From IMG/VR virus record IMGVR_UViG_3300011242_000004: 64,000 nucleotides of DNA, one strand, 5' to 3'. The stretch comes from an uncultured virus (IMG/VR IMGVR_UViG_3300011242_000004). Its lineage: Duplodnaviria; Heunggongvirae; Uroviricota; Caudoviricetes. Below, one piece after another: positions 19,596 through 49,246 of the stretch. Position numbers and translations under genes: made by a program. Each line of letters begins with the position of its first letter. Positions within the stretch are counted from its first letter, which is position 1. Below the pieces are notes generated by a model. It was not told where the DNA came from. It saw only the letters and a list, made by a program, of their open reading frames with translations, and made no database searches.

Positions 19596-19610
19596 GTTTG
19601 CAAATTCCTC

Positions 19611-31604: not shown

Positions 31605-32407
31605 TCTACAGTTCCCCTTTCATCGAGCATCATGAGCAACATCATCGCCACTTCACTTTGCGTCAACATCAAGTTTTCTTGTGCCGACACCAGCTCTTCT
31701 TTAGTTCTAACCATTTCTGCATTTGCTTGCAAGATGTTTTCTTTGATTTCTTTTGCTTCCGCATTCGCTTTTAGAATGTCGCCCTTCGTCACTTCGAGGG
31801 ATTCACTCAAGTTCATGAGTTCCATCGTCATCATGGCACTCTCTTCAATCGTTGCTTGTATCTCTTGTTTTTGTAAATCAAGTAATTTCTTTTGTTCTGT
31901 CATCAATGTCTTTTGACGAATCAGTTCCGCTTCCTGATTTTGAATGGCTTCTTCTTTGAACATCAATTCCATCGTCATGCGCGCTGTCTCTTGGAGCGTC
32001 TGGTCTGCTTTATTGTGAGCATCTCCTGCATATGTAATGCTTGTATCGACATTGTATCCAAGCTGTTCGATTTCTTGTTTCAGTAACGCATTCTCTTCTT
32101 GCTGTACTTTAATCGTTTTTTCGTGCGTCGCTTGCTTCTCTTGAAGAATACTCACCTGTTCGATGTATTGTTCCTCTATGCTTAAGTTTTCGACCACATA
32201 ACGGAACCAGAATCGATTATCAGCGAAACACGTGATGCCGCGATACCCTTTTCGTTTCTCCGATGTCGGGAGTTCCTTGAGATAATCCACAAGGAACCCT
32301 TCCGCGCGAAGTTCTTCTGCTGTCTTGCCGAGCCCATACGTTTCATGGAACGGGTCGGTGTGACAGAATACAACATCATTTACATCATTCGTTTTAATAA
32401 AAATCAT
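31601..32407 (-). CDS. Long coiled-coil XkdW-like tail-fibre assembly protein
   Basis: PFHETYGLGKTAEELRAEGFLV N-terminus, long heptad region; lies between fibre and XkdX. Confidence 0.6.
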   Translation of the reverse strand: MIFIKTNDVNDVVFCHTDPFHETYGLGKTAEELRAEGFLVDYLKELPTSEKRKGYRGITCFADNRFWFRYVVENLSIEEQYIEQVSILQEKQATHEKTIKVQQEENALLKQEIEQLGYNVDTSITYAGDAHNKADQTLQETARMTMELMFKEEAIQNQEAELIRQKTLMTEQKKLLDLQKQEIQATIEESAMMTMELMNLSESLEVTKGDILKANAEAKEIKENILQANAEMVRTKEELVSAQENLMLTQSEVAMMLLMMLDERGTVE

Positions 32408-35400
32408 GATTGACCTCCTAATAATTGTTCGAGACGAAGCAAACGTGCTTCCAAGTCTTCGACTTTTTTCTCTAGTGCATCATTACGTTCCATTTCTTCT
32501 TGAAGTGCAATATGAATCGCCGCCGCATATGATTGTGTTGAAACGCTAAGTCTATCTTCTTCTTTTTCTGGTACGTCGATGAACCAATCCGCTACTTTGT
32601 TCTTGTCGTATTTCACCAGTTGGTCAGCAATGAATCCAAATTGATTAGCGTGTTGTTCCATGTCGTCATATTTAAACTGATAGAGTGGCATCGACTTCAT
32701 GAACTCATAGATTTCAGCTGAACGATTTTCTGAAACCGCATCCTTTGCTAAGCGTTTTGTAAATCCTTCTTCTGACCACTCACTTCCGCGTACTCGTTGG
32801 ATGTCATGCTTCGACCGACTATCTGAATTGATTGTTGTCGTTTTTGCCCATACAGTAACGAAACGATAACTTGTCGAACCAAGATGGAGTTTTTCTGTTA
32901 CTGTAGGACGGAATGCCCCTCCAAGACCAATCATTCCTACAATAGTGTTGTCGAAATCCGCCTTACTTGTAGACCGCGTCAAGTTGTCTGTTGACCAGTA
33001 CATTTGAATCGAATCGTTAGCTTCTAGAATTAAGACTTCAGAATCATTACTCATGTTCAAGTGAGTTGCGGGGTTGACGTTGCTTTCACCTGCATAAATG
33101 ACTGTACGGGAGCCGCCCCCAATATCTATCCAAACACCATAGGATTCTTTCGTCCCATCAATTGTAATCGCAGACCGTAATGTGTTTCCTGCATCTCGTA
33201 CACGAAGGTCAAATATGTTTTTAACATCTGTTTTCAATGTATTGTTTGCAAAAAGTGAAACATCTTCTCCGAGTAATTCAGTCACCTTTTTAGAAGTTCC
33301 TTGTGTCGGTGTGAACTTCAAGAACGTGTAATTGTTTTTACTTCCCATAGAGTAGAGCCCCATGCCATTGACGCGACTAAATAACCGCATTCCTGTACTT
33401 TCAACAAGAGAATTTCCATCTGATGGTGATAAATCCATCTGAATTTCATTTTGACCTGAAACAGATGGGAGTGCTCTCTTTATGATATTTCCATACATGA
33501 AATTCTCACCGGTGATACCATTTAAAGCATTGATGTTAACATCTCTCCCCGTAGATGTAATATCAATATCGAAATTTGATTTTAACTCAAAAGCGTTTCC
33601 ATACGTTATCAACTTTGCTCTATTCAAGTAATCTCCAACATCCAGTACGATGCTTCCGTCAAAATCGTATCCTTGCTTTTGAAAACTGTTTTGAATTTTA
33701 ATATAGCTTTGAGCTATCGTCACGCTATTGCTTGTTGTCTGCCCATCATTGTAATAATAATCTGATGAATAAATGTTATTCTCATTGATTGTTGTTCCAA
33801 TGAAATGTCGAATGACTGGACTAGTGTTTTGCATTTTTTCTCTTCCGACGCTAATTTCTGTTGGCTGAACTTTCACATACTTTGAATATCCGTTCGCATC
33901 AGCGGCTGAAATAGACTGTAACCCTGAGCCTTCTATTGTTCCTCCATTAACCTTGATATTCTTAGCTGTCAGACTCCCATCACTATTGACTGTGAATACG
34001 GTGTCTGCTCCTTTTTTGATTTCAAAACCAGTGGAAGAGTTCATTTTAACAGAAACACCTGTCGTTTCATTGCTTGCCGTGAGCCCACCACTGTTAATTG
34101 TAACACCTGATGCACCTGAGCTAATTGAAACCAAGTCAGCATTCAATGTTCCAGCCTTGATAATGTTCGCATTCAATGTTCCGGTCGTGATTAAATCTGC
34201 ATTCATTGAACCCGTGACAATGTTCGTTGCCGTCAATGTTCCTGCATCTACTTCTGTCACTTGAAGACTTGCAATGTACAAATCGTTTGTTGATGTTCCA
34301 TCCCCGAATGAGGTTGATTGGTTGTAGTTCAACAAACGCAACCGAATCATATTCATCTTGCTTCCCATGAACCATACCTTTTTGTTAGCTCCAAAATCTG
34401 GGAATAAAGGATTTTTCAACTTAGATACATCTCCATAGTAATCTGTCGGGTACAAATATGTTTCGACCGTTGTCCATGCGGTTGTCCCACTTTGTCCTTT
34501 TCCTGCTACATAGAAATATGGATTTGTTGCTGATGTATTGAACACGTTATTTGTGTTGCCGACATATTCAAATGACCCTCTGTTTCCTACCTCTGTCGTT
34601 GGAGAAGTGACCGAATGATACGAGTTAAATCCGAAGTACATACTTCCTGTCGCGGCACTTGTTCCATCTGATAACGTATATCTGAATCGAAGTGTGACTT
34701 TATATGCTTTTGTAGGGTCAACATAGAATGTATTCGTCGTAATCGTTGAGTTTGCTCCGCCGACGTTCGAGAATTTCATGATACGTCCATATGTAGAATC
34801 ATCAACGAATGTAGGAATTGAAGAACCTTTACCCCATCCATTATTTCCAAGTACAGTTGTCGCATCAAAAGGAACTGTTCCAATCGCTTCAAGTGTCGGG
34901 TCATTGACAAGGTTTGCCGCCCCAACCGAAAGCTTACTTGCTACAATCGTATTGACCGCCAAACGGTCTCCTGTGATTGTTCCAGCTGTGATACGTGCCG
35001 CATTCATCGACCCCGTCGTAATCAAGCTTGCATTCATCGCACCGGTCGTAATGTTTGAAGCGTTCAAGTTCGTAATAGTTACGTTGGATGCATTAATCGT
35101 ACCACCAGTAATACTATTTGCACTTAAGTTTGTTACTCCAATAACAGACGCATTGATTGTCCCTGATGTAATATTTGAGGCATTTAGTTTTGTGACGTTG
35201 ACCTTTGTTGCATCAAGAGTTCCCGTCTGAATTTTGTTTGCATCAATGACTGTGACGCCGCCGACACTTGTCGTCAGTGTGTACAAATCTGAGATTTTCA
35301 AACTGCTGTCTTCAGGAGCTGGCGACCATTCTGTCATCTTGTTCCCTTTTTCCAACTGAACGTTCTTCATGTACATAATTGAGTTTGTCGAGAATCCGTA

Positions 35401-38400
35401 TCCGTAGATATAGAAATTAACTGGTTGACTCAAGTCGACATCATCTTTTAATGTAATCGCTTGAGAAAAACGTTTCCAACCATTGACAGAATCAATTGGA
35501 ATGTTGAATTGACCAGAATGGAATCCATACGCTGTTTCACCTTTTTTCCGGTAATGGAATCCACCGAATGTAAAGGTTCCTAGACCTGTCGCATTAAAGT
35601 CTCCAGAGAATACAAAATCTCCTGAAGTTATTGTTCCTAACGTAATTGAAATTCCTTTCCATTGACGTGTACCATCACTCTCATTGTATTCATAGACATT
35701 GTATCCAAATGTTGTCGCATCCACATGTGCATGGAAAGAAGTCGTTGGGTTTGGAACACCCGCATTATATCCACCCCAAAGCTTCGCATACAAATCAGGG
35801 TTTTTCGATGTCACATTCCCAGTTGAATACGTATCTTTAAACTGGCTGTTCCAGAGAAGGTTTGTTCCCCCGACTTGAATTGCATTGATTTTTGAAATTG
35901 TATCTTCAGGAGCAGGTGACCAGTCTGTTGCATTCTGACCTACTTCAATCTGTACTTTTCGAATGAAGTAACTACCAGCATTTGCGGCTCCCCCTGAAAC
36001 CGCTGTGTTCCCACGAAGAGCAATCCCTACATCTGGGAATGTTGTGATGTTGCTTGGAACTGTGAACGCATAACTAAACCGTCTATAGATACCATCTAAT
36101 GTAAAGCTTGGCGACTGGCTTCCCGAAATCAATGCCGCATTGACCATGTCTCGTAAGTACACATCAATGACATGAACATTGTCGGCATCAGCTTTGGCGT
36201 CAAATGAAATAATCATTTGCTTTCCTTCACGACCCGCCAAACGATTCCCATTGAAATTGTAATACACTAATGTACTGCTTGTTTGTTCTCGTTCCGAATC
36301 AAGCAGAAGGTTTGTCCCCCCAATTTCGAGGTTACTTAAACTTGTATTGATATCTTCCGGTGCCGGTGACCAATCTGTCGCTTTATTCCCTTTTTCTATT
36401 TTTAATTCATCTACATCAAATGTCGCATCTGCAACAACTGCACTCGCAATTCGAATTGTTGTATATAATTCTACTGCGTCATTTGGAGCAACAAAGCTTT
36501 CTTCATAACGTGTCCATGTGTTTGCAACTGTTGCGATATTTTTAGAAACAATAGGATTACTACTGACATTCGCCGCGTTTTTAAATTTTAAAAGATGCGT
36601 AACAGTCATATTCACTGATGTTCGAACCCAGAAAGAAACAACATAAGTTTCTCCTCCAATGATTGCCCCATTATAAGTAGAAGGAGATGCAATCCCTTGG
36701 CCGCCACCACTAGACCCATTCATTAGAACTCGAACTGCTTTTCCATTTACTCGACCTGAAATACTTTGTAAGTTCTTTGAACCATTAAAGGTTGCCCAGT
36801 TTAATGGCAAATTGTTGCTGTCTAAAAACTCACCAGAAGAATTCGGAATTAAATTAGTTCCACCAATTTTGATATTGTTAATCGCCGCCGTCGTATCTTC
36901 TGGCGCTGGTGTCCAATCTGTTGCTTTGTTTCCTTCTTCAAGCTTAATCCATTCAATTGTACTCGTTGCTGTTGTTGAACTATCCATGTGATAGATAGTT
37001 ATATTTAAATTAGAAGAACTTCCAATTACCCATGGAAACGTATAACGATATACACCGTCACTTCCTAGTTGCTCTGGACCTAATGTGCAAAGCTGAACGT
37101 TTCCTCCAGAATTATAAATCCCAAAATACCGTTTTCCGCTACCAAGAGTTGCTTTCATTGAAATGGTCATTGATGTTCCTGCGGTTAATGTTTTTGTAAT
37201 TGGATAGCTTGTCATGTTGTAAGCAGAAGAACTAACACTTCTTGCTGATTCTAATAACAGATTTCGTCCACCAATTTTAATGTTTCCAACAGCAGAACTT
37301 ACATCGTCTGGTGTCGCGGCACCGACTTGAGCGGCTGTCGGTTTATTGACGTTCGCCCATGTGATGCTACCACCCATCATATTGATGTTACCCGTAATCG
37401 TTAAATCACCTGTTGCGGAATCCAACTTGAATACAGGGTTAGCAGGGTCAGTCTTTTTATAGACTTTAATCCCATCTGTTGCATTAAACTCTGCAACATT
37501 TCGAGTGCTGGTCACGACCATCCCTTTAGCGGCAGACAGACTAATCCCGTTGTAGTCTTTGTTTGCTTCAATCGTTTCAAGGGCAAAGCTGACATCAGCA
37601 ACATAAATCGTGTTTGTTGTTGTACTATTGTTTGTATTGAAATACACTTTGACTTGTGTCGTTCCAGCTGGGAAGTCCGTATCCGTCACACTTCCTGTTC
37701 CGATATTCAATCCAGAAATTACTGCTTCATAGTGAACAAAGGAAGTTGTTGATGGGATAACTGTAGAGTTCGAGCTTGTTCGAATTAAGTGTCGTTTACC
37801 TAAAGACGTCCCAGCCGCATTGTAACATTCAAGACCAATATTATGTGTGCCCGTTGTCGTCGAGTTAATGACACTGACCATCAGACGATATGTACGGTCT
37901 GGTTCAACGGCAATAAATTCATCTGTACGGGTTTCTCCTGTTGCTGTCCGTGAGAACGAACCCGGTCCTGTCACTTTCTGTGCTGTCGTATATGTAAACC
38001 CTGAGAAGTTTCGGTTACTCGCAACGCCCGCATATCCATTTCCAACGAGTTGTTCCCGGTACGATTTCGTATATGCTTCTGCTTCGGCTTTTGCATCGCT
38101 GACTCGTTTTGATGTTCGTGTCTGAAGTACCAATTGTGCTTGATAAAACGCTTTCCAGTTATCCCGGAATGTTTGTCCAACAATGGTGTGTACCGTTTCT
38201 ACTTTTGCATTGCTGACATCCCAACAATAAATTCCATCAGCAAGAATGGTATTTAAATAGTTAGCAAGTGTTGTATACGCATTCGCATACGCTGTGTATG
38301 CAGTATCACTTGTTCCTACACCCGCATCCGTTGCACTCTTACGAGTTTGGTAGTATTCACCAGCTGTATATGTATTGACAGTTGCGACCGCTGGTAATGG

Positions 38401-38742
38401 TATTGTTCCTGAAGGAGAAGCACCTAACATGTCTGTTAATTTATCTAAAATGACTTGGCGCTCTGTCGCTGTGATTTTATCATCACTTGACAGGTTTCCA
38501 AGCTTAGCAGTCGCTTGGTCTACCCCTTTACTGATGTATTCCGTAAAGTCTGGGTCAAGCTCTGTTAAGTCCATTGCTTGGGTAACCCATGCGCCCATCG
38601 ACCATTTCTTTAAAACGGGTGGCGTTAAACTGCTATCTATCCAGAGTGTTCCTTCTGTAGGATTTGTTGGTGCTGTTCCTGCAATGATGGCATCATTTAA
38701 ATCCATCAAGGTGACCATACTAACTCCGACTTTGTTTCCCAT
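32404..38742 (-). CDS. Large tail fibre / receptor-binding protein (2112 aa) with CBM-like cassettes and C-terminal S74-type intramolecular chaperone
   Basis: Four GGxNL...G(N/Q)xxTxWxPAPED units; LNASNITxG repeats; SDSRSKHDI followed by a coiled coil. Confidence 0.88.
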   Translation of the reverse strand: MGNKVGVSMVTLMDLNDAIIAGTAPTNPTEGTLWIDSSLTPPVLKKWSMGAWVTQAMDLTELDPDFTEYISKGVDQATAKLGNLSSDDKITATERQVILDKLTDMLGASPSGTIPLPAVATVNTYTAGEYYQTRKSATDAGVGTSDTAYTAYANAYTTLANYLNTILADGIYCWDVSNAKVETVHTIVGQTFRDNWKAFYQAQLVLQTRTSKRVSDAKAEAEAYTKSYREQLVGNGYAGVASNRNFSGFTYTTAQKVTGPGSFSRTATGETRTDEFIAVEPDRTYRLMVSVINSTTTGTHNIGLECYNAAGTSLGKRHLIRTSSNSTVIPSTTSFVHYEAVISGLNIGTGSVTDTDFPAGTTQVKVYFNTNNSTTTNTIYVADVSFALETIEANKDYNGISLSAAKGMVVTSTRNVAEFNATDGIKVYKKTDPANPVFKLDSATGDLTITGNINMMGGSITWANVNKPTAAQVGAATPDDVSSAVGNIKIGGRNLLLESARSVSSSAYNMTSYPITKTLTAGTSMTISMKATLGSGKRYFGIYNSGGNVQLCTLGPEQLGSDGVYRYTFPWVIGSSSNLNITIYHMDSSTTATSTIEWIKLEEGNKATDWTPAPEDTTAAINNIKIGGTNLIPNSSGEFLDSNNLPLNWATFNGSKNLQSISGRVNGKAVRVLMNGSSGGGQGIASPSTYNGAIIGGETYVVSFWVRTSVNMTVTHLLKFKNAANVSSNPIVSKNIATVANTWTRYEESFVAPNDAVELYTTIRIASAVVADATFDVDELKIEKGNKATDWSPAPEDINTSLSNLEIGGTNLLLDSEREQTSSTLVYYNFNGNRLAGREGKQMIISFDAKADADNVHVIDVYLRDMVNAALISGSQSPSFTLDGIYRRFSYAFTVPSNITTFPDVGIALRGNTAVSGGAANAGSYFIRKVQIEVGQNATDWSPAPEDTISKINAIQVGGTNLLWNSQFKDTYSTGNVTSKNPDLYAKLWGGYNAGVPNPTTSFHAHVDATTFGYNVYEYNESDGTRQWKGISITLGTITSGDFVFSGDFNATGLGTFTFGGFHYRKKGETAYGFHSGQFNIPIDSVNGWKRFSQAITLKDDVDLSQPVNFYIYGYGFSTNSIMYMKNVQLEKGNKMTEWSPAPEDSSLKISDLYTLTTSVGGVTVIDANKIQTGTLDATKVNVTKLNASNITSGTINASVIGVTNLSANSITGGTINASNVTITNLNASNITTGAMNASLITTGSMNAARITAGTITGDRLAVNTIVASKLSVGAANLVNDPTLEAIGTVPFDATTVLGNNGWGKGSSIPTFVDDSTYGRIMKFSNVGGANSTITTNTFYVDPTKAYKVTLRFRYTLSDGTSAATGSMYFGFNSYHSVTSPTTEVGNRGSFEYVGNTNNVFNTSATNPYFYVAGKGQSGTTAWTTVETYLYPTDYYGDVSKLKNPLFPDFGANKKVWFMGSKMNMIRLRLLNYNQSTSFGDGTSTNDLYIASLQVTEVDAGTLTATNIVTGSMNADLITTGTLNANIIKAGTLNADLVSISSGASGVTINSGGLTASNETTGVSVKMNSSTGFEIKKGADTVFTVNSDGSLTAKNIKVNGGTIEGSGLQSISAADANGYSKYVKVQPTEISVGREKMQNTSPVIRHFIGTTINENNIYSSDYYYNDGQTTSNSVTIAQSYIKIQNSFQKQGYDFDGSIVLDVGDYLNRAKLITYGNAFELKSNFDIDITSTGRDVNINALNGITGENFMYGNIIKRALPSVSGQNEIQMDLSPSDGNSLVESTGMRLFSRVNGMGLYSMGSKNNYTFLKFTPTQGTSKKVTELLGEDVSLFANNTLKTDVKNIFDLRVRDAGNTLRSAITIDGTKESYGVWIDIGGGSRTVIYAGESNVNPATHLNMSNDSEVLILEANDSIQMYWSTDNLTRSTSKADFDNTIVGMIGLGGAFRPTVTEKLHLGSTSYRFVTVWAKTTTINSDSRSKHDIQRVRGSEWSEEGFTKRLAKDAVSENRSAEIYEFMKSMPLYQFKYDDMEQHANQFGFIADQLVKYDKNKVADWFIDVPEKEEDRLSVSTQSYAAAIHIALQEEMERNDALEKKVEDLEARLLRLEQLLGGQS
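35308..37283 (-). repeat. Four tandem carbohydrate-binding-like cassettes with conserved linkers
   Basis: Linkers at about 36895-36933, 36352-36390, 35902-35940 and 35308-35346. Confidence 0.85.
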
Positions 38743-38766
38743 TCTATCACTTCCTTAATATTAAAT

Positions 38767-38813
38767 AAGCATGAGGATTTCGAGTTTATTTAAACCCGTT
38801 CCTCATGCTTTTG
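38767..38813 (-). terminator. Long hairpin between the 668-aa and 2112-aa fibre genes (terminator or stabiliser)
   Basis: AAGCATGAGGA...TCCTCATGCTT inverted repeat with inner stem. Confidence 0.7.
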
Positions 38814-38823
38814 CAAGACTCTT

Positions 38824-40830
38824 TTACTTCTCTTCGACTTCAACGTAAATATTTCCTCGTACGTCAACGTCTGTCGCCGCCACTTGAATTGAACGACCAT
38901 ACTTGAATCCACTTGTCCCAAATGTCATATTTTGCTGATTGCTTGCATTGTACAGTGACCATTTGTACGTATAGAGTGTTTCATCGGTGTCATTGATTGG
39001 GACACCGTTCTTGCTGACAACCGCATCCAACTGAACCGTTCCTTGACCATTTTTAAACACTGTCACACCAAAGATTTGCACTTGAACCGGGTCAGAGTAA
39101 TCTGTGATGGTAACGACGTCAGAGTATGTGTTTCCATCGTACGTGACAATACATTTAAATGTCTCAAGACCAAGAACCGCTGAACCCGGTACCGTCAACA
39201 CCTTATCATTAATCGTTGAAGCCCCTGTGACCCCTGTATACGCTGTTGGAGGAGTCACTGTGTTTTCAAAGATAGGCTTTGTAATCGTCAAGTTTCCACC
39301 AGACGTACTTACCTTGCCTTGTAATTTGTTCGCTCCTGCTGTTTTACCAACATAAATATTTGCACCGTAGACTCCGGTAGGGAACGCTGGAGGTGTAATA
39401 ATCAATGTTTGACCTGCTGTGACTGCCTGTGTTTTCTCTGGTCCAGTTACCGTCTCACCTGTTGCTGTCAACCATGTGTATTTGATGTAGTATGTACCAG
39501 CCGCAACTGTACCACCAGAAGCTCCGACTGAAGAACCAGATGCCGCTGTTGGTGCTGTACCGTTATTGTTCAGGATACGCCAGCCAACGCCCGCTCCTTG
39601 GTCTGTCGTTTGTAATGGTTCTTGGACGTACCAGACATATGTACCAGTGACGATGTTAATCCCTTTATACAAATCACATTGAATCGTCGTCGACTTCGTA
39701 TCACTGACCGTGTTTCCACCCGGTGCTGAAACGAATGTGAAGATTGGGTCGTTCCCGTCATCGACAACCGGAATCGATTGTTCATCAAGAACCGTCGTTG
39801 TTCCACCTGCCGCATACAAAGTAACCTTAATCGCTTTGATAGTAGCTGTTGAAGGTGTGTACGCTTTTGTCGCTTCATTCGCACTCGATGTGTATTTGTT
39901 TGACCAGTTACCTGCCGCATCTTGTTCCGCAATGATGAAACGACCAGCATAATCAGCAGGAGCATTTTGTCCTACTTGCTGGCGAGCTTTCACTGTGACT
40001 GCCGTCGGGTTATAAACACCGGTCGTACTTCGTTTAATAACGCCTTCAGCGAAGATGTCATACGTTGTTGCATCAGCCCCACCCTTGGTTTTACTAATAC
40101 CAAACGTTTTTGTGACCGTGGAATATCCTGAGCGAGTGGCTGTGAATAAGACCGAACCGGTATCTGCTGTCATTGCTGTGATAGTTGCTGTCGCTGATGT
40201 CGTTGCTTCTGTAACCGTTACGTTCGTTCGTGTTTGAGCAATCGTCCATGAAGCGGTCACATCCGTTGAGCCTTCAAAGATTTTAAGTGTTGTCGTTGCC
40301 CCAGAAAACGAAAGTACTGTCCCTGAAGCATTAGCTGGAACCGCTTGCGTTTCATTGCTAAGGTAAGCAGTGATGGCGTTTGCCCCTTTAGCTCCACCTG
40401 TAATCTTAAAGAGTTCAATGTCTGCTTTCATCGTTGAATCCAGTGTCGTATCTGGGTCTGTGTATGTTACCTGTACTTCAAATCGTTTTGAGTTCACAGA
40501 CGCTAATACGTTCGTATTGATTGTCAGTGTTTTAACGCCCGATGCCGCCATCGTATAATCAGCGGTGTTTGCTGTCAATTCTGTTCCATCCACAAACCAT
40601 TTAATACTTTTAACGTCCCCTGTGCCAATGACGTTTGTACTTGTACCCGCTACATATAATTCTGGTGAGAGAACCGGTTTTGTTGTCGGATAATGTGGAT
40701 TATAAACCCCAGTGTTCGGGTCGTACGTTTGTTGACGACCCGGCACTCCTGATAATGTGATGTACAACTGCATTTGTTTGGAATCATTTAAATCCGTTAA
40801 GGTAATCATTCCGGTTGCTACTACTGCCAT
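38824..40830 (-). CDS. Tail-fibre protein of tandem Ig-like domains (668 aa)
   Basis: T/G/A-rich beta sequence with repeated KW/TW and F-strand motifs; FN3-like insertion (GTYYIKYTW...ANIYVG). Confidence 0.75.
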   Translation of the reverse strand: MAVVATGMITLTDLNDSKQMQLYITLSGVPGRQQTYDPNTGVYNPHYPTTKPVLSPELYVAGTSTNVIGTGDVKSIKWFVDGTELTANTADYTMAASGVKTLTINTNVLASVNSKRFEVQVTYTDPDTTLDSTMKADIELFKITGGAKGANAITAYLSNETQAVPANASGTVLSFSGATTTLKIFEGSTDVTASWTIAQTRTNVTVTEATTSATATITAMTADTGSVLFTATRSGYSTVTKTFGISKTKGGADATTYDIFAEGVIKRSTTGVYNPTAVTVKARQQVGQNAPADYAGRFIIAEQDAAGNWSNKYTSSANEATKAYTPSTATIKAIKVTLYAAGGTTTVLDEQSIPVVDDGNDPIFTFVSAPGGNTVSDTKSTTIQCDLYKGINIVTGTYVWYVQEPLQTTDQGAGVGWRILNNNGTAPTAASGSSVGASGGTVAAGTYYIKYTWLTATGETVTGPEKTQAVTAGQTLIITPPAFPTGVYGANIYVGKTAGANKLQGKVSTSGGNLTITKPIFENTVTPPTAYTGVTGASTINDKVLTVPGSAVLGLETFKCIVTYDGNTYSDVVTITDYSDPVQVQIFGVTVFKNGQGTVQLDAVVSKNGVPINDTDETLYTYKWSLYNASNQQNMTFGTSGFKYGRSIQVAATDVDVRGNIYVEVEEK

Positions 40831-40844
40831 GATGCTATCCCCTT

Positions 40845-43800
40845 TTATAATGTTTGGTTGTCTGGGATATCTAAATCACAAGTGAACTGGGCTTTCTGAT
40901 AAACATCAACGTGTGTGATGTTTATTGATTTGACACCAATACCGTGACTTTGGTTCCAGACGGTATCTCCGGCGGCATCATCCGATATCCGTTTCCATGT
41001 AAAGTACGAGGCATCTAATTCATCGGTAATGTTGATACTTCCTCGATAGACAATGGCACGCAACACCGTTTGTATGTTTCCGTTCTTAAAAAGTATGCCT
41101 TTTGAACTAGCAATGTCAACCCTGTAAGTGGGACTTATGTCTAAATCTTCCAAGTCTTTTTTCGTTTCATCGATTTCACTTTTCACGGCACGGGCAATGC
41201 GGTCTTGTGCATTCACACTTGCATCGTATACTCGTTTAGCGATGATGGCATAATCCGCCCCATTGATTTCAGAATTGGTCGTTTTGTTATCACTTGCAAG
41301 GATGGCTTTGTCATTATTCAAATCTTTTGTCACGTAGATGTAAAGACGGAATTGTTCGACGGCGTCACTATATTCTGTGATATCCAAATCACCTGTCAGA
41401 TTATAAGTTAACGCTTGCGAGAATATATTATCGTACGTCGATTTAATCCGTTCCCATTCTTTTTCTAGTCCAAATTTCTCATATGGCGTGATGACATTGT
41501 TGTCAATCAAATCGGCAATCGATTCTGAAGCACTGTCCCATCGAGACGTTAGCGCCGGATTCAAGTCATCAGCACTTAATCCACCTTCAATGGTAATGGC
41601 GCCTCCTTTGATGACGAGTCCATCATCACTGAGGGTAACGCTTCCGCCTCCTAGTTTTTGAAGGTGAATCCCATCTGCATCAATGGTGACCGCACCTGCC
41701 GCAAAGGTAATCCCTTTAGAGGCATTAATCGTACCCGTTGAAATCATATCTCCGGTAATCGTTGTAATGCTTGCCGATTGCCACATACTTGGTTCCGTGA
41801 CGCCTTCTTTCTTTTCTTCAAGCATGACACAATCAAAGTACACAAGACTGTTTGCTTTCTTTGTATAGAGGGCAACGGTCCCACTGATGGTTCCAGCTGG
41901 AATCGTAATCTCTGCTACAATGCGTTTGAATCCATCCATTTGCGTAATCGTCGTCGAAGCACCCCAGAGTGTTCCATTCGCATGCGTTAATCCTAGTTTG
42001 ACTTCCACACCCGTTGTGTCCGTCGTATACGCATACGCTGTCACAAAGTAGGTGTACCCATCAATCAATCCGTTCATGAAGTTGCCGTCACGTTGTTGTA
42101 AATACACAATGTGTTCTTGGTTATTCCCGGTGACTTTTAAAGACTTATCCCCCACCCGTCGAATATCTTTACTGACAATAGCGGTCGTTTGTGGGGTGAA
42201 GACATCGACTGGCGATTCCCCGGTTTCAAAGATTTCAAAATTATCGTATCCATATTTGACTTGGTTGGCTTCAAAACCAATTGCTAAGTTATTCGCTGTA
42301 ATACTATTCGCTTTGATTTGTTCACCGGTAATTGTCCCGGCAACAATTTTTGCTCCATGCAGTTCTGAAATCATGGCGTTACCGATAGCGGCTTCGGCGA
42401 TAATCGCACTTCCTGCTGTAATCGTCCCTGCTTGAATATGTATTGCATTGATTTCATGCGCTTTGATTTTATCTGCCGTAATCGCTTCAGCGGTAATATG
42501 TTCCGCAATAATACTGTTTGCAATGATGACACGACCATCAACGGAATCATCTTGAAGCTTCGTATTGCTGATGGCATTGTTATGGATACCGGCATTGTAA
42601 ACACCGGTGTTGTCATAGAGACGTGTCGTCCCATCTGCTCCTAACACCACAAGCCCGTACGTACCGGGTACGATTTCACTCGTATTTCCTAAGATGACTC
42701 GTAGACGACGGTCGCCGTTTCCATCGACAGCATCATAAATCTTGATGTTTTCATCCTTGATTTTAAGATGACCATCTGGTGAGTCGATGGTAACTTTACC
42801 AGTACTGATACTACCGGCATTAATCTTGACTGCATCCAAGCTGATGATTTGAGCACTAGTGATACTGGCTTCCTTAATCATCGCTCCTGTAATCGTCGCA
42901 TTCATCGTCACGGAGTTCATTGCAGTGATAAGTCCTGCTTTAACGACTTCAGCGGTGATGCTTCCCGCAATCAAGTTGTCGATTTCAGCGGTTCCAATAT
43001 GCGCTAAGACGGCATCGAGCGTCTGGGCTTTAATCTTATTCGAGATTAAATCGTCAACGAGTAAGTCATTGACTTTTAAGATATCAGCATCCAGTTGAAT
43101 CGTCTTGATATACTGAGCATGAATATCCTTCGCATTGATTCTATCCGTGGAGGTAATCCGTTCCGTTCCTAAGTCAACGATATTACCCTCTGTGATGATA
43201 GCACTTTGAGCATTAATCGTAGACGTTGTAATATCAAAACTACCTAGCGTATCAATCTGAGCATTAGCGACATCAATCGTATCCGTTGCTTGGTTAATCG
43301 CTTTGATGACATTTTTCACCATTGGATTGATGTTAATATCTCCAGTAATTTTAGCTCCGCTAATACTTTCAATTGCTCCATCGACAATGAACACAGAATT
43401 TGTTGAATCGTGTTTTTCATTGATGGCAAGGACAACATTCTGACGCATGTTCGCTGACGGAATATTCCCCGGCAACATGTTTCCGTCCATGTCTTCAATT
43501 GAAGACCATTTGATTTTCTTTGCCGTTTGACCATTGATGGCATCAATGACTTTTCCACCATCATAGTCTTTAATCTTTTCTTTGCCGATGCTGTTATCCT
43601 TTAAGATGTTGGCATCAAGAGAATTGGTCACGAACGTAATCATGTCCGAAGTGATTCCAATTCCGATGATATGAGAAGTCAGCTGAACTCCGTCGGCGAT
43701 GACGGCCCCACCTTTGACACTTCGCTTCAGTCCTCCGTCAATGAATTCAATGACCGGGTCATTCGTCTTCCATGCCGAATAGTACGGGACCCAACCATAG

Positions 43801-44663
43801 GCTGGTAAGAAGTTCGTATGTCCTATCCGTGTTCCAAAGGAAATCCCATCTAAGGCAAAGATAAGACCTAATGCTTGAGCATAGCTGTATTCTCGTTCTG
43901 CTGTTCCTTCATAGGAGCCAATCAGTTGCACACCCATCGTCCGCCGTAAGCTCAAGTATTGTTGCATCTCCACTAGGACTTGGCTAGGAATGACGCCGAC
44001 CCCTTCACTTTTTCCGAATCCTTCTTTCCATACTTTCACTCGATTGTCGAGTTCGAGGGCTTTAGCGACCGGGTTGCGTGTTGCGTCATATGCATTATCC
44101 AAGATTTCAATAGGAGTTAATGTGATGATGACATCCAGATTATTCTCTAACGCGGAATCAATGATTTGTTGTTGTCGGTCACGTGGCACTTGCGTGTAGC
44201 TGAAGTCTTCAAGGAAGACCCCTTTGCTTTTATTCAATTGAATATTTCCGATTTCAATCTGGACTTGGGCAAGCGTCTTCGTTCCGACGCTAATCCGTTC
44301 ATATAGATTCGTCTGGTTCCCTTTGAGTCGAAGGGCTAGCACATCGTTCTCGTTGTCTTGCGGAGCAATGATATTGCCATACATACTCAGGTTTCCAATG
44401 GCGCTATCCATTCCATCAATGCTTGCTGGAGGAATACTAAACTTCATGTAGTCATCCACACGAAGAGGAGAGAGGTTGTCGATGACACGAATCCGTTCTT
44501 CTAAGCTTTGGTCACTTTGTGATAATCCTAGATGCCGTTCAATCGTCTCAATCGCTTCTTGTAATTCATTGACGTCTTCTGCCATGACGTAATCGCCAGC
44601 AGGGTCGCCTTCGTAGGTCGCATTCCGTTTACGTAGGAATACGGAATAATCTTCCGGGTACAT
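40845..44663 (-). CDS. Tail-fibre protein (1272 aa): N-terminal anchor, beta-helix-like repeats, CBM-like domain, C-terminal Ig-like domain
   Basis: DYVMAEDVNELQEAI anchor; ITADKI-type repeats; LFKNG...FTWKR...FTCDL terminus. Confidence 0.75.
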   Translation of the reverse strand: MYPEDYSVFLRKRNATYEGDPAGDYVMAEDVNELQEAIETIERHLGLSQSDQSLEERIRVIDNLSPLRVDDYMKFSIPPASIDGMDSAIGNLSMYGNIIAPQDNENDVLALRLKGNQTNLYERISVGTKTLAQVQIEIGNIQLNKSKGVFLEDFSYTQVPRDRQQQIIDSALENNLDVIITLTPIEILDNAYDATRNPVAKALELDNRVKVWKEGFGKSEGVGVIPSQVLVEMQQYLSLRRTMGVQLIGSYEGTAEREYSYAQALGLIFALDGISFGTRIGHTNFLPAYGWVPYYSAWKTNDPVIEFIDGGLKRSVKGGAVIADGVQLTSHIIGIGITSDMITFVTNSLDANILKDNSIGKEKIKDYDGGKVIDAINGQTAKKIKWSSIEDMDGNMLPGNIPSANMRQNVVLAINEKHDSTNSVFIVDGAIESISGAKITGDININPMVKNVIKAINQATDTIDVANAQIDTLGSFDITTSTINAQSAIITEGNIVDLGTERITSTDRINAKDIHAQYIKTIQLDADILKVNDLLVDDLISNKIKAQTLDAVLAHIGTAEIDNLIAGSITAEVVKAGLITAMNSVTMNATITGAMIKEASITSAQIISLDAVKINAGSISTGKVTIDSPDGHLKIKDENIKIYDAVDGNGDRRLRVILGNTSEIVPGTYGLVVLGADGTTRLYDNTGVYNAGIHNNAISNTKLQDDSVDGRVIIANSIIAEHITAEAITADKIKAHEINAIHIQAGTITAGSAIIAEAAIGNAMISELHGAKIVAGTITGEQIKANSITANNLAIGFEANQVKYGYDNFEIFETGESPVDVFTPQTTAIVSKDIRRVGDKSLKVTGNNQEHIVYLQQRDGNFMNGLIDGYTYFVTAYAYTTDTTGVEVKLGLTHANGTLWGASTTITQMDGFKRIVAEITIPAGTISGTVALYTKKANSLVYFDCVMLEEKKEGVTEPSMWQSASITTITGDMISTGTINASKGITFAAGAVTIDADGIHLQKLGGGSVTLSDDGLVIKGGAITIEGGLSADDLNPALTSRWDSASESIADLIDNNVITPYEKFGLEKEWERIKSTYDNIFSQALTYNLTGDLDITEYSDAVEQFRLYIYVTKDLNNDKAILASDNKTTNSEINGADYAIIAKRVYDASVNAQDRIARAVKSEIDETKKDLEDLDISPTYRVDIASSKGILFKNGNIQTVLRAIVYRGSINITDELDASYFTWKRISDDAAGDTVWNQSHGIGVKSINITHVDVYQKAQFTCDLDIPDNQTL

Positions 44664-44678
44664 AATCTCTCTCCTTCC

Positions 44679-44864
44679 TTATGGTTTTTTAATGAGTCCG
44701 TTTCGTCCATCAAACGCTACCCATTCTCGTTTGTTTTCATCAAAATAATTTAATTCAAAATACTCGATATCGGCTGATGCCAAGTACGACCAAGAGACGG
44801 TGGTTGTATCCGTCTCCTTGTCATACACTTGCACTAAGCCTAAAGGAATGTTTGTGGGAAGCAT
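44679..44864 (-). CDS. Small FN3-like structural protein
   Basis: PLGLVQ...VSWS...IEYFELNY; AAGGAGG RBS. Confidence 0.55.
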   Translation of the reverse strand: MLPTNIPLGLVQVYDKETDTTTVSWSYLASADIEYFELNYFDENKREWVAFDGRNGLIKKP

Positions 44865-44875
44865 GTTCTTCCTCC

Positions 44876-47800
44876 TTATACGTATTCAATGATAGGGTAA
44901 ATCCCTAACGCTAAATACTTTTTAATGCGTGCTTGGATGTCTTCTTCTTCAAATTGTCCACCTTCACTTCGAAGGATTTCTTTTGGCAATCGAATGACGA
45001 CGACCCCTTTTTCATAATACGCTTTCCCATCGAACGTTCCGATGTCCCAGAAGCTTTCAACGGCCCCTGCTCGTTGTTCGATTTCTTTTCTCGTGAAGCT
45101 TTCTTTAAGTCCGCCCCCTCGTTTACGCGCATCCATGACAATCGTATTATCAATCAACGTATGTTCCCGTACTTGGATACGTGCTAACAACATCGCTTCA
45201 GGACGGGCTTGTTTAATCCGTTTCCATTCTTCTTCAGAAAGCACATGACGAAGTGGATTCGCTTCCGTTCGTACAATCGGTCCTAAGACTGTTCGTTTAG
45301 GAAGCAAGTACAAGAAGACTTCTTTGTTCAACAATTTTTCTGTTGGTGCTTCTTCGTAGACGACTTCTCCTTCTTCTGCTTTTCGAAGGGTGAACGTATG
45401 CCCGACCGCTGGATTCAAATCCAGATGCATGAATCGTTTCAGTTCTTCATCCCAATACCCTTTGTAGTTGTAGTATTGTTCTTCGTGCATATACGTCACA
45501 TAGATTTCATCTTTGAATGTGATTTCCTTTTTCAAACGAATCAAACCGCTTAAGACATCGACGTCTTCGACTTCCAGTTCTTCTTCAATGAAGTAATTGT
45601 AGTCGGCATAAATCCGTTCTTTCTGAGTCGTTGTAAAGATGATATCCCCGCTTGCATAATCAATCTTATATTGGTCGTTTGGAATTACAACGCCATTGCG
45701 GTAGATGATAGGTGTTGGTGACGTCAACCAGTTCTCTTGGCTACTGACCCAACGTTTCCGGTCGGTCGTTTTCAAGAGTTCATTGTTGATGCGTTCGTTC
45801 AAGTATTTCCGTTTGACGACTTTGAAATTGTCTTGCGTATAACTTGCCCGCACCGTCCCTGCTTTTGCTGTCGTGAACGTAACTGTCCCTGCCTCATAAT
45901 CAATCGTAAATCCACTGTTTAAGATGATGTCAGTCCCACTATTCGTTTCATCCCAGTAGATAATCGGAATCACTTTTCGGTTCCATTTTCCTAAACTAGC
46001 TTGGAACTTCTTCCGGTCACTAGAAATCGCTTCAAGTTCTTCTTTGACGACTTTTTGTTCGCGTACGACCATCGGACGACGGTCCACTCGTACCGTCTTC
46101 GTATCCATGTATTCTGCAATCTCTTCTCTGTCATTCATCCCGTAGGTCGGATAAAAGACTTGATTGCCATACTCGATGATTTCGTATTCTTGTTTCCCTG
46201 TCATCCGTTCTTCGTAGGTGCTTAAGCGTCCTGCTTCTTGAATCGCTTCCCAGTCTTCCCCGTTCCATCCAGTCTTCACAAAGTCGCCTTTATGGACACG
46301 GAGATACCAGCGTTCCCGGCTATCATCGGTGCCCGGGTATTCGACTTTGATTTGTCCTGCATCCATTAACTGCAAGGCAAATTGTTTCTTTGTCGCTTGA
46401 ACCGTGTAGTAGTTCGTCCATGCTTGCAAAATGACTTCTGGTTTTAAGACTTTTCCATAGATGTCATAGTGACTGATGACGGTCTGTCCTTTTTTGAGGA
46501 AGAAACTTTTTCCCGTTTGTGGGTTGTAGATGTTCAAGTTAACGTAGTTTGTTCCCAATGTTTCTTCATAGACATCTCCGACTTCGAATTCATAATAGAC
46601 CCGTGTGGCATCCGCCCACATTGCTCCTGCTTTTAATGGAGGCAAGTATTGCGTGATGTTCCCTAAGCTAATCAGTCCGTCATCTTTCTTAATCTGGAAA
46701 CGATGGACGGTGCTGTCGCCATATACTTTCTGATACATCGACACAGTCGGGTTCCAGCTATAGACATAAGCTTTTGTCGTGAAGGAAGCTTCGAGCACAG
46801 GATGATGAATGACCACATCACTCGTATCAAATCCTGCATTTTGGAAATCAATCCCTTGCCCTTTTGTTGCCGTCGCATACGCAATCAAACGTTCATTTCC
46901 TAGGTTCGGACGGTTCATCCGCACGACACCAATCGATTCCATTTGAATCCCATCGAGTAAACTTGTTCCGCTTCCATTTCCATCAACGTGTCCAACTCGA
47001 AGTCGAAGGTCTTTTGCTTCCGCTAACGTAAAGCTTAAGCTAATCTTTTTCCATGTCGAAGTCCCAGAGATAGCAGATGATTTTACGACTTCTTGTCCTG
47101 ACGGCAAGTAGATACCAATCTTCGTGCCCACTCCTGTGACGTTCGTCGTGTTGACCCATCCTTCAACGATATAGCTCCCAGCAGGAACGACTCCTAAACT
47201 ATTCTCGACAAAGGCTTGTCCATTGGTCGCAACAATTTTCATCCCATAGACGTTATTGCGTGCCGCATCTTTTGTTTGTGAGAACGTAGCACTTCCACTG
47301 AATAGAATCGTGTTCCAGTTTGGAATCGCATTCAATGTCGTTGTTGTCCATGATGTCGTCCCACTTCCATTGACCAGCTCAAACTCTTGGTTCAAGACAG
47401 GGTAACTTGTATTCGTATTAACGACTACTTGATATGTACCCGTCGCATCTTGGAATCCTTTTGGCAAATGTGGGCGAAGTGCTTCCGCTACCGATGGCGC
47501 CAATAGCTTTTTAGCTACGATTTGTGTTTCATCTTCAATCGCCCGGTCATCAATATAAACAAGATTTCCTTTTGCATCTTTATACTCTTGGTCAAATAGA
47601 TTATTGCGGTGGTAGACGAACTCTTTCACGACAGGTCCAGCGACAAACCGTTCTTCTCCTGCCCATAGCATGAGGTTTGCAAACAACCGATTGCTTTCTT
47701 CTTTTGAAAGCAGTAAGTCGGTTAATAGTCCCATGTTCGAGACAATCAAATACCCATTGCCATGTTTACGATACATCATCGCATTGTTCTGGTCTGTGTG

Positions 47801-49246
47801 TTTGACGATAGCTTTCCAGTCGTTTGCTCCTTCTCCGCTCCCGAATTCAATGCTAGGAGAAACACTTCCTAGAGCCACTGCATTCTTTAATGGGAAGTAT
47901 CGTTCAATGACTTTCTTTTCACTGTCCGCATATGCTCGTGGAGCAGATACGGTCGCTGAACTTGAGAAGCCTACGTTACGGATGAACGTCTGTTGTCCAT
48001 TTACTTTAAAATTCAAGACACTGGCGCCGGTTCCGTTGTTATCAACGAGTAATTTCCCACCGTTCTCAAGGAACGCTTGTAAGCCTAGTTGGAAACGACT
48101 TAAGTTTTTTGTTCCGTATCCACCAATAATAAGAATGTCATAATCCAAGTAATGGTCCTCTGGCATGTCTAAATTTACTAACCAATAATCAATTGATTCT
48201 TTTCCGGCGTTCTCGTTTCCAGTATGTGGGTTTTCGAATGTTAAATAACTTGGTAGGTAATTATTAGAGCCAGCGAACATCTTTTTACCGACAGATGTTA
48301 GATTTCGAATCGACACTCCAAACTCTGTATCATTGATGTAAGCATATCCTACATTCAGAGTGGCTTTACGTTGTTCACTGAGTCGAGCATTTAAGTTTGC
48401 TTTCACTTGATATGTAAAACGATGACTAGGACGACTGACTTCGTCCGCAATCAATTGAGGCGCTTTGGCATACACCTTGTATTGATTCTCTCCCTCAGAA
48501 ACAAGCGCAAATTTCTTTTGCATCTTATCGGCTTCGGATGTCAATGCATCTACTTCTTCTTTACTGACTTGTTCAAAGAAGGGTTCGACGTTCAAGGATT
48601 CGAGGACTTCCCGGCTTTTACCGTTTTCCCATTTCTTATATTTCAATTGATACGAGACTTCATCATTCGAATAAAAATTCGTATAGACTTCGATACTGTA
48701 CACGAACCCTTCGGTTCCGTTCTTCACCAATTTGATTTTATAGGCTTCGTTTTCTAAACTTTTCCCATCACGGGTCACGACTTCAATTTGAGTACCTAAG
48801 TAAATCAAATCATCTCGTTCTTCGAGTGTTAATTCTTCAAAACGAATCGTATCCGCATGCGGGTCAAATCCTTTTTTGTAGATACTCACGAGACTATTGC
48901 GCGCATCAAACCGTCCTTGTGACCGATACTTCCAGTAAAGTGCTTTTGGATTTGTTCCTGTCGAGTATTCATCGGTAATCAAAATGTCTTTACTAGGAAA
49001 CTCTGAAACACCTTCCAATGAATGAAGCATTGATTCTTCATTGGGATACACAAGAAACTCTTCTTTGTATTCTCGCATTAACCGATTCTCTGGAATCGAT
49101 GTACTTAAATCTTCAATGGATAAATTGCGTTGTGGGGTACTTGCTTCATTATAGACATAAGCAAGATTCGCGGCCCCGTTTGGGACGTTCTTACTCACAC
49201 GAAGTGAATACCCGTCCCGTCCATTTCCATGAGGGCGTGTTGGCAT
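44876..49246 (-). CDS. Large baseplate-associated structural protein (1456 aa)
   Basis: Repeated YxIDY..G.I.F units, CBM-like insert, YDILII...FLENGGKLLVD alpha/beta domain. Confidence 0.7.
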   Translation of the reverse strand: MPTRPHGNGRDGYSLRVSKNVPNGAANLAYVYNEASTPQRNLSIEDLSTSIPENRLMREYKEEFLVYPNEESMLHSLEGVSEFPSKDILITDEYSTGTNPKALYWKYRSQGRFDARNSLVSIYKKGFDPHADTIRFEELTLEERDDLIYLGTQIEVVTRDGKSLENEAYKIKLVKNGTEGFVYSIEVYTNFYSNDEVSYQLKYKKWENGKSREVLESLNVEPFFEQVSKEEVDALTSEADKMQKKFALVSEGENQYKVYAKAPQLIADEVSRPSHRFTYQVKANLNARLSEQRKATLNVGYAYINDTEFGVSIRNLTSVGKKMFAGSNNYLPSYLTFENPHTGNENAGKESIDYWLVNLDMPEDHYLDYDILIIGGYGTKNLSRFQLGLQAFLENGGKLLVDNNGTGASVLNFKVNGQQTFIRNVGFSSSATVSAPRAYADSEKKVIERYFPLKNAVALGSVSPSIEFGSGEGANDWKAIVKHTDQNNAMMYRKHGNGYLIVSNMGLLTDLLLSKEESNRLFANLMLWAGEERFVAGPVVKEFVYHRNNLFDQEYKDAKGNLVYIDDRAIEDETQIVAKKLLAPSVAEALRPHLPKGFQDATGTYQVVVNTNTSYPVLNQEFELVNGSGTTSWTTTTLNAIPNWNTILFSGSATFSQTKDAARNNVYGMKIVATNGQAFVENSLGVVPAGSYIVEGWVNTTNVTGVGTKIGIYLPSGQEVVKSSAISGTSTWKKISLSFTLAEAKDLRLRVGHVDGNGSGTSLLDGIQMESIGVVRMNRPNLGNERLIAYATATKGQGIDFQNAGFDTSDVVIHHPVLEASFTTKAYVYSWNPTVSMYQKVYGDSTVHRFQIKKDDGLISLGNITQYLPPLKAGAMWADATRVYYEFEVGDVYEETLGTNYVNLNIYNPQTGKSFFLKKGQTVISHYDIYGKVLKPEVILQAWTNYYTVQATKKQFALQLMDAGQIKVEYPGTDDSRERWYLRVHKGDFVKTGWNGEDWEAIQEAGRLSTYEERMTGKQEYEIIEYGNQVFYPTYGMNDREEIAEYMDTKTVRVDRRPMVVREQKVVKEELEAISSDRKKFQASLGKWNRKVIPIIYWDETNSGTDIILNSGFTIDYEAGTVTFTTAKAGTVRASYTQDNFKVVKRKYLNERINNELLKTTDRKRWVSSQENWLTSPTPIIYRNGVVIPNDQYKIDYASGDIIFTTTQKERIYADYNYFIEEELEVEDVDVLSGLIRLKKEITFKDEIYVTYMHEEQYYNYKGYWDEELKRFMHLDLNPAVGHTFTLRKAEEGEVVYEEAPTEKLLNKEVFLYLLPKRTVLGPIVRTEANPLRHVLSEEEWKRIKQARPEAMLLARIQVREHTLIDNTIVMDARKRGGGLKESFTRKEIEQRAGAVESFWDIGTFDGKAYYEKGVVVIRLPKEILRSEGGQFEEEDIQARIKKYLALGIYPIIEYV

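Follow-up and report, generated by a model that had tools for sequence, protein, structure and literature searches.

In chaperone-usher pili (Fim, Pap, Caf1), each subunit is an immunoglobulin (Ig)-like domain without its last strand. The next subunit donates this strand from an extension at its N-terminus, and head-to-tail chains result. Among phage adhesion devices, the nearest published and solved case is the BppU-BppA pair of Tuc2009. According to the accessible text of the structural study, a C-terminal hairpin of BppU completes a β-sheet of the last domain of BppA, and the composite resembles a titin Ig domain (crystal structure, PMC4742702). Here we analyse DNA from an uncultured virus (IMG/VR record IMGVR_UViG_3300011242_000004; Caudoviricetes). 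The window, that is, the whole stretch of 64,000 nucleotides (nt), contains three adjacent genes coding for proteins P0001 (1272 amino acids, aa), P0002 (668 aa) and P0003 (2112 aa). We consider it likely that these genes encode one defined three-part tail fibre, whose separately translated parts are joined by two split Ig-like domains. The predicted chaining by strand completion of an Ig-like domain is well supported by domain homology, gene-order coupling in relatives, fused forms, an AlphaFold2 deletion comparison and single-chain relatives. A first-pass annotation had read the three proteins as a chained, pilus-like fibre with a self-polymerising shaft; the chaining stands on homology, coupling, fused forms and AlphaFold2, but the shaft is not supported.

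Predicted split Ig-like domains in the window and in related loci

We call socket a predicted Ig-like domain with strands A-F and without strand G, and plug the predicted N-terminal strand that would complete it. The features of the locus, with the basis of each assignment, are the following.

40845-44663, minus strand: open reading frame (ORF) of P0001, putative proximal fibre protein of 1272 aa, socket only
40848-41126, minus strand: socket A1, last Ig-like domain of P0001, about residues 1180-1272 (profile and PHROG matches)
38824-40830, minus strand: ORF of P0002, putative adaptor of 668 aa, plug and socket, string of Ig-like domains, member of phrog_3267
40783-40830, minus strand: plug D1, N-terminal strand of P0002, MAVVATGMITLTDLND (motif, homologues, AlphaFold2)
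39091-39168, minus strand: strands F and G of the complete penultimate domain of P0002, residues 555-580, FKCIVTY...VVTITDYSD (reference for the missing strand)
38827-39090, minus strand: socket A2, last Ig-like domain of P0002, residues 581-668, ending ...GNIYVEVEEK after strand F (profile, AlphaFold2)
38767-38810, minus strand: RNA hairpin in the 81-nt gap between the adaptor and distal-fibre genes, followed by UUAUUUAAU (RNA folding)
32404-38742, minus strand: ORF of P0003, putative distal fibre of 2112 aa, plug only
38692-38742, minus strand: plug D2, N-terminal strand of P0003, MGNKVGVSMVTLMDLND (motif, homologues)
32608-32715, minus strand: Peptidase_S74 intramolecular chaperone domain of P0003, residues ~2010-2045 (Pfam)

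The C-terminus of P0002 consists of two tandem domains of the same family. The penultimate one (residues ~360-580) contains an inserted domain and ends in FKCIVTY-DGNTYS-DVVTITDYSD (residues 558-580), that is, in strand F and then strand G. Two final strands, FKCIVTY and VVTITDYSD, had been read here in the first-pass annotation, and AlphaFold2 agrees, placing strands at residues 555-564 and 567-577. The last domain (residues 581-668) shows the pattern FKNG...YKWSL...DV...NIYVEVE and closes two residues past strand F, its strand at 658-667 being followed by the stop codon. A profile of this domain (71 homologues) matches P0001 at residues 1180-1266 with an E value of 6.2e-07, and P0001 stops eight residues past its FTCDL strand, at ...AQFTCDLDIPDNQTL, without strand G. 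The C-terminal domains of the 1272-aa and 668-aa proteins are thus homologous and both stop after strand F, one strand short, as had been proposed.

The strand motif occurs only three times in the six frames of the window: at two N-termini, GMITLTDLND in P0002 and SMVTLMDLND in P0003, and in the internal strand G. The earlier suggestion that the next gene opens with the missing strand is confirmed in this way. The same holds for the distribution of parts, as assigned by socket and plug: the 1272-aa protein has an acceptor only, the 668-aa protein a donor and an acceptor, and the 2112-aa protein a donor only. Residues D13 and D16 of plug D1 are invariant among 71 aligned homologues, and plug D2 is conserved in 8 aligned homologues. 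Downstream of the plug, the folds are unrelated: P0002 continues with an Ig-like domain and P0003 with a PxNPxEGxLW domain. We speculate that the conserved (K/R)-N-G of the first socket strands and the invariant D-x-N-D of the plug may touch each other. An isopeptide lock between the conserved lysine of FKNG and the Asn/Asp of DLND was also considered and is unlikely, since Tal-type sockets have an arginine at that place (FRNG).

Further information was obtained from AlphaFold2 monomer models of full-length P0002 and of residues 1-580, computed with the same 71-sequence alignment. In the full-length model (mean predicted local distance difference test score, pLDDT, of 85.2) residues 3-13 form a strand, and residues 1-10 have a pLDDT of 84. 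In the 1-580 model residues 1-13 are coil and the pLDDT of residues 1-10 is 57, while nearly all other elements are the same. As the order of the strand is lost when the last domain is removed, the plug would not belong to the N-terminal domain of P0002; the comparison puts it on the last domain instead. Packing of the N-terminal strand within its own N-terminal domain, which would speak against a joint, was not seen; the strand is ordered only when the last domain is present.

The same domain also exists in uninterrupted form. A search of 1.84 billion protein representatives with residues 581-668 of P0002 (E up to 0.001) gave 80 matching representatives, 71 of which have the domain at the C-terminus. 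A plug also stands at the start of 34 of the 80, according to a relaxed pattern that undercounts variants. Among internal copies reaching strand F, 19 of 22 continue within about 30 residues into a strand ending in xxDxxD[PG]. In the Tal-like proteins P0188 and P0192, the socket, the loop, a strand such as TGQFTIVDLYDG and a collagen-like fibre all belong to one chain, and one of the related loci described below (L073) has a fused form, ..ALICEIYQGLNLIARGQISIVELYDGED.., within one ORF. From the fused and split copies together it follows that the F-G loop can be either continuous or interrupted by a gene boundary.

To this, gene order in relatives adds a quantitative argument. The sample comprised 73 related loci and the window (74 sources in total), 71 of the loci having been fetched from viral contigs, and 724 stop-to-stop ORFs of at least 100 aa were scanned on the oriented strand. 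The socket profile gave 150 matches, of which 140 end no more than 12 residues from the C-terminus. A plug was counted after a socket when the relaxed strand pattern stood at the start of the next ORF within 330 nt, with a chance estimate from the background rate; a strict pattern had missed 22 junctions, mostly sequence variants or contig ends. By this measure a plug follows in 133 of the 139 socket-ended ORFs that have a stop codon, against about 1.1 expected by chance, and the 133 junctions amount to 99 different sequences. The second joint lay outside the fetch selection, and here the plug is found in 65 of 70 cases. In the remaining six of the 139 ORFs, one has no DNA left after it and five have no plug (L027, L038, L069, L073 and L029). 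L069 and L073 carry variant strands, L029 has no plug after its first socket-ended ORF, and in L027 a 200-residue poly-gamma-glutamate hydrolase domain (PF05908, E value 4.5e-50) lies ahead of the plug.

Two kinds of insertion were observed at these junctions. In L027 (9864-10523) and in P0123 (residues 1-217) the poly-gamma-glutamate hydrolase stands before the distal-fibre plug, which becomes internal, and a capsule-degrading enzyme is found at the joint. In L038 (10193-10867), a Bastille-type locus, a free-standing GIY-YIG and NUMOD3 homing endonuclease gene (30.1 and 38.7 Pfam bits) lies between the adaptor and fibre genes. Its start duplicates the opening 13 codons of the fibre gene, which encode the plug, and the fibre gene restarts at 10877.

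The complete order of socket, then plug with socket, then plug was found in 56 of the 74 sources, L001 and L002 being annotated examples; most sources without it are explained by contig ends or missed detection. Two adaptor genes, or a socket protein directly followed by the distal fibre, were seen in none of the 74. In 0524phi7-1, of the Bastillevirinae, and in the large siphovirus vB_BanS-Thrax5, a baseplate spike or Tal endopeptidase comes first, the P0002 homologue second and a large fibre third. The spike or Tal ends with the same strand-deficient domain (..ATFECDVEVPES, ..AIFKLDVDKPQ). The adaptors start with GQITISDLND or GQLTLVDLND and end with ..NLLANADK or ..NIICEVSTR, and the fibres start with GQATIYNMND or GQMTLTDMND. 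In Bastille-type loci and in L065 the second socket and its plug have changed together (..ANLLANADK or ..ANLVVDASK with TIYNMND or TLFNVND) and the first pair is canonical. Likewise, L067-L071 combine a second pair of ..FVCVVVI with TITVISD and a first pair that is still canonical. The adaptor module is widespread, and the annotations seen for its homologues (hypothetical protein, tail protein, putative peripheral baseplate component) are silent on a joint.

The nearest phages offer a different comparison. In WH1 (gp079, 1894 aa) and KLEB27-3 (gp050, 2078 aa) the fibre is one protein: residues 5-867 of WH1 gp079 match residues 2-805 of P0001, and residues 938-1160 match residues 81-478 of P0003. 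Neither a socket domain nor a plug was found in these two fibres, and P0119 is a further single-chain form. The adaptor profile gave no match in WH1, KLEB27-3 and 0305phi8-36 (0 of 3) vs 3 of 3 control records. L003, which is 90% identical to the window phage, has the same cassette. These sequence comparisons suggest that, in the window phage and in L003, a socket-adaptor-plug cassette was inserted into a formerly continuous fibre. Since the fibre is a single chain in WH1 and KLEB27-3, P0001 and P0003 would have to stay physically connected to work, via the cassette. The window can thus be regarded as a natural experiment, in which the one-chain fibre of the nearest phages has been cut into parts that need reassembly.

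Alternative readings and proposed assembly

The first-pass annotation took P0001 as an anchor, P0002 as a head-to-tail shaft of variable length and P0003 as a tip, with the hairpin keeping tip expression below that of the shaft. We consider this improbable. It would make sense of several observations: P0002 alone has both plug and socket, AlphaFold2 docks the P0002 plug to the P0002 socket, the plugs GMITLTDLND and SMVTLMDLND of the window resemble each other, and a strong hairpin with a U-rich run separates the adaptor gene from the tip gene. However, none of the 74 sources has more than one adaptor gene, and this gene is always flanked by one for a socket-only protein and one for a plug-only protein. 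Bastille-type myoviruses and large siphoviruses commonly carry the module, its members being annotated there as baseplate or tail parts, and the second socket and plug have co-changed with the first pair left canonical (Bastille type, L065, L067-L071), which argues for two distinct joints. No capping chaperone to control polymerisation was seen among the neighbouring ORFs scanned. With one adaptor gene, a fixed order, ordinary baseplate or tail-tip contexts and diverged second joints, the self-polymerising shaft is not supported.

The hairpin itself, which the first-pass annotation had pointed out between the adaptor and tip genes, is real. At 38767-38810 the RNA has a minimum free energy of -24.1 kcal/mol (z -5.3), a stability that 0 of 200 shuffled sequences reach. 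The relatives show 36 distinct adaptor-fibre gaps: 25 of at least 50 nt, all of which fold (-9.3 to -31.5 kcal/mol), and 11 of 21 nt or less. In 14 of the 25 long gaps a consensus promoter (TTGAC[AT]-17-TATAAT) precedes the hairpin; of these two elements, only the hairpin is present in the window. In such relatives the fibre gene appears, from the sequence, to have its own promoter and then a hairpin leader, so the hairpin there would not simply be an attenuator, and prophage-type loci have an 8-nt gap without any hairpin. The promoter-bearing gaps (L002, L006, L009, L012, L014, L015, L017, L019, L022, L023, L026, L028, L059 and L062) share one layout: a sigma-A-type TTGACA, 17 nt, a TG-extended TATAAT, a strong hairpin and the ribosome-binding site of the fibre gene. 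As for the link to curly fibres that had been drawn earlier, the available parts of two reports place the curly-fibre candidates of 0305phi8-36 (ORF119, ORF129 and ORF131) beside the head module (PMC2147016, PMC4870245). The adaptor profile finds nothing in this curly-fibre phage, and the link is not supported.

If the adaptor plug fits the socket of P0002 as well as it fits the proximal one, P0002 might cap itself in cis until it exchanges strands with the distal fibre, or add head-to-tail in variable number; we hold either to be unlikely. If the fit did lead to head-to-tail addition, a pilus-like, length-variable fibre would be built in the cytoplasm by donor-strand exchange, without a chaperone. 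In another reading, the proteins associate without completion of an Ig-like domain. The strand would form trimeric β-structure with its sister chains or dock elsewhere, and the terminal domain would be a stable six-stranded variant. Fibre N-termini do commonly form trimeric attachment structures. Moreover, in the accessible text on Tuc2009 and TP901-1, receptor-binding protein N-termini cup a loop of BppU (PMC4742702), and the strand is not N-terminal in L027 and P0123. In addition, we infer the pairing of the plug with strand F of the last domain from the deletion comparison and not from coordinates, and this point counts against our own reading too. Nevertheless, the strand is homologous to strand G of the complete domain, and in 19 of 22 internal copies it is still part of the same chain. 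The AlphaFold2 monomer, which has no sister chains, orders the strand only with the last domain, and no socket extends more than a few residues past strand F. An association of this kind seems to us to have little probability.

Finally, there might be no functional joint, the gene boundaries lying near domain edges by chance or recent decay, or a single polypeptide being made by read-through or frameshifting. The P0002 stop and the P0003 start are indeed in the same frame, 81 nt apart. But this gap contains three in-frame stops, which rule out read-through of the P0002 stop. P0001 and P0002 are separated by 14 nt and a change of frame. P0002 and P0003 have their own ribosome-binding sites (AAGGGGA and AAGGAAGTGA, respectively), and the split persists across 99 different junction sequences of sipho- and myoviruses. 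We regard the absence of a joint as very improbable.

Our preferred reading, one three-part fibre with two split Ig-like domains, has points against it as well. The fetch pattern included the first plug, and the first-joint count (68 of 69) is biased for that reason. Many loci are near-duplicates, with 58 distinct four-junction sets among 71. In L027 and P0123 the plug is not N-terminal, so that a free N-terminus is not required. On pairing specificity AlphaFold2 is silent, as it also joins the plug and the socket of one and the same adaptor, and the mutual information of plug and socket columns, compared between cognate and non-cognate pairs, was dominated by column variability. A stoichiometry of 3:3:3, which we consider likely because P0003 has a trimer-type chaperone and P0001 is homologous to single-chain fibres, is deduced from these two features.

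With this in mind, we propose the following assembly for the three-part fibre. P0001 would be the proximal part, whose last Ig-like domain has strands A-F and serves as a socket. P0002 would be a beads-on-a-string Ig-like adaptor that starts with a free strand G as plug and ends with a second socket, and P0003 would be a distal carbohydrate-binding fibre starting with the second plug. Each plug would be inserted alongside strand F in the last domain of the protein before it, restoring the fold with a nick in the F-G loop, and three adaptor chains would tether the distal trimer to the proximal trimer. From sequence and models together we infer that plug and socket bind in trans, in cognate pairs. 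The cassette could be a portable connector common to the spike/Tal, adaptor and fibre modules of many Bacillus phages.

If this is correct, many Bacillus phages link a spike or fibre base, an adaptor and a receptor-binding fibre by a standard split-Ig plug and socket. It would account for distal-fibre swaps between sipho- and myoviruses and for the constant order of these large 'hypothetical' tail proteins. The joint would be a small, testable protein-protein connector. It also suggests a rule for annotation: a C-terminus that ends straight after ...C-E-V-S-K on the socket side, and an N-terminus with GQxTLxDLND on the plug side.

Domain content and surroundings of the three genes

The N-terminal 805 residues of P0001 resemble the single-chain fibres of WH1, Edson and KLEB27-3. 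They are followed by a weak CBM_4_9 match (residues 823-928) and by a C-terminal part (973-1270) that resembles the C-termini of siphovirus Tal proteins, with PHROG tail-fibre matches at 1005-1268. P0002 matches phrog_3267 (E value 2.8e-82) and has 111 homologues in the protein collection. The homology to this adaptor family extends along the whole protein, from the N-terminal GQxTLxDLND strand to the C-terminal domain of the ...CEVSK type. By tblastn it matches 221 phage records, 138 of them Bacillus phages, at 35-46% identity. Foldseek with the full model of P0002 returned generic multi-Ig proteins only (contactin, titin, complement, GhpA), which are uninformative on the joint.

P0003 is built of repeated modules, each ending in ...EKGNKATDWSPAPED, with β-helix-like repeats and a C-terminal head and chaperone; its homologues carry CBM_4_9 and Gp58 domains. 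Peptidase_S74 scores 25.1 bits (cut-off 22) in a scan restricted to the last 232 residues, and stays under the cut-off (E value 0.0022) in the whole-length scan. The S74 chaperone domain is a mark of trimeric fibres and spikes. No sequence match to PDB chains was obtained for P0001, P0002 or P0003 at E values up to 0.1-1. In P0114 and P0116 (1390 and 1425 aa vs 2112 aa) the first 220 residues are 92-95% identical to P0003; in this comparison the distal part of P0003-type fibres has been exchanged behind a conserved plug module. P0115 (2104 aa) is the public gene call for the 2112-aa protein. It starts 8 codons later, and the residues before the plug would be lost (window 38718-38742). The upstream ATG has a better ribosome-binding site than the later start and agrees with the N-termini of homologues.

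The window belongs to a large Bacillus-type myovirus. It encodes a baseplate wedge protein (61600-62403), endolysins (18963-20438) and many families annotated as 'virion structural protein', and the contig recorded for the 668-aa protein measures 130,872 bases. The best relatives of one window protein are found in vB_BauM_KLEB27-3, vB_BceM_WH1 and Edson, all jumbo Bacillus phages, 0305phi8-36 being more distant. Megablast of window positions 38000-45000 against phages gave zero matches. Upstream of P0001 lie a 212-nt gap (44664-44875) and the gene of a 1456-aa protein (phrog_28704, 44876-49246), syntenic with the small gp080 and gp081 (~1495 aa) of WH1.

Comparison with known systems

Strand donation without a chaperone in a Gram-positive setting is also described for the TasA biofilm fibres of Bacillus subtilis, which differ, as far as the accessible text goes, in being a homopolymer of one bacterial matrix protein (PMC9674648). 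In the sheaths of contractile tails and injection systems, virion proteins are likewise linked by terminal strands given to the sheet of a neighbour. There, according to the part of the report available, identical subunits form a mesh by extending an existing sheet, unlike the Ig completion in a linear fibre considered here (PMC13266070). In streptococcal phage receptor-binding proteins, the first four β-sandwiches did not trimerise in predictions, and the accessible part of that study makes no mention of a split domain (PMC9437275). No published description of a split-Ig joint in phage fibres was found in the literature covered, which did not extend to subscription journals and supplements.

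The likeness to Tuc2009 is that two separately encoded proteins of a phage adhesion device are held together by fold complementation of a β-sandwich, here predicted. The difference, judging from the accessible text of that study, is that here a single N-terminal strand is predicted to complete the C-terminal domain of the preceding protein, head-to-tail and twice in series (PMC4742702). A sequence search of PDB found no homology to BppU or BppA in P0001, P0002 and P0003.

Like the subunits of chaperone-usher pili, the terminal Ig-like domains of P0001 and P0002 have no strand G, relative to the complete internal domain, and sequence, gene order and the AlphaFold2 deletion fit a supply of this strand by the N-terminus of the next protein. 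Unlike in these pili, assembly would be cytoplasmic. Moreover, three different, large multi-domain proteins would stand in a fixed order here instead of forming a homopolymer, and the joint equals a nick in the F-G loop of an ordinary tandem Ig array. Pfam and PHROG scans of 26 window ORFs showed no PapD-like chaperone or usher, and the locus is a phage tail module. The predicted joint of the window thus works like pilus donor-strand complementation but is not a member of that system.

P0002 is a member of the spike/Tal, adaptor and fibre module of 0524phi7-1, vB_BanS-Thrax5 and Kirov, and the window has the same parts in the same order. It differs from that module in that the first socket is carried by a long fibre protein of a 0305phi8-36-type jumbo myovirus and not by a baseplate spike or Tal.

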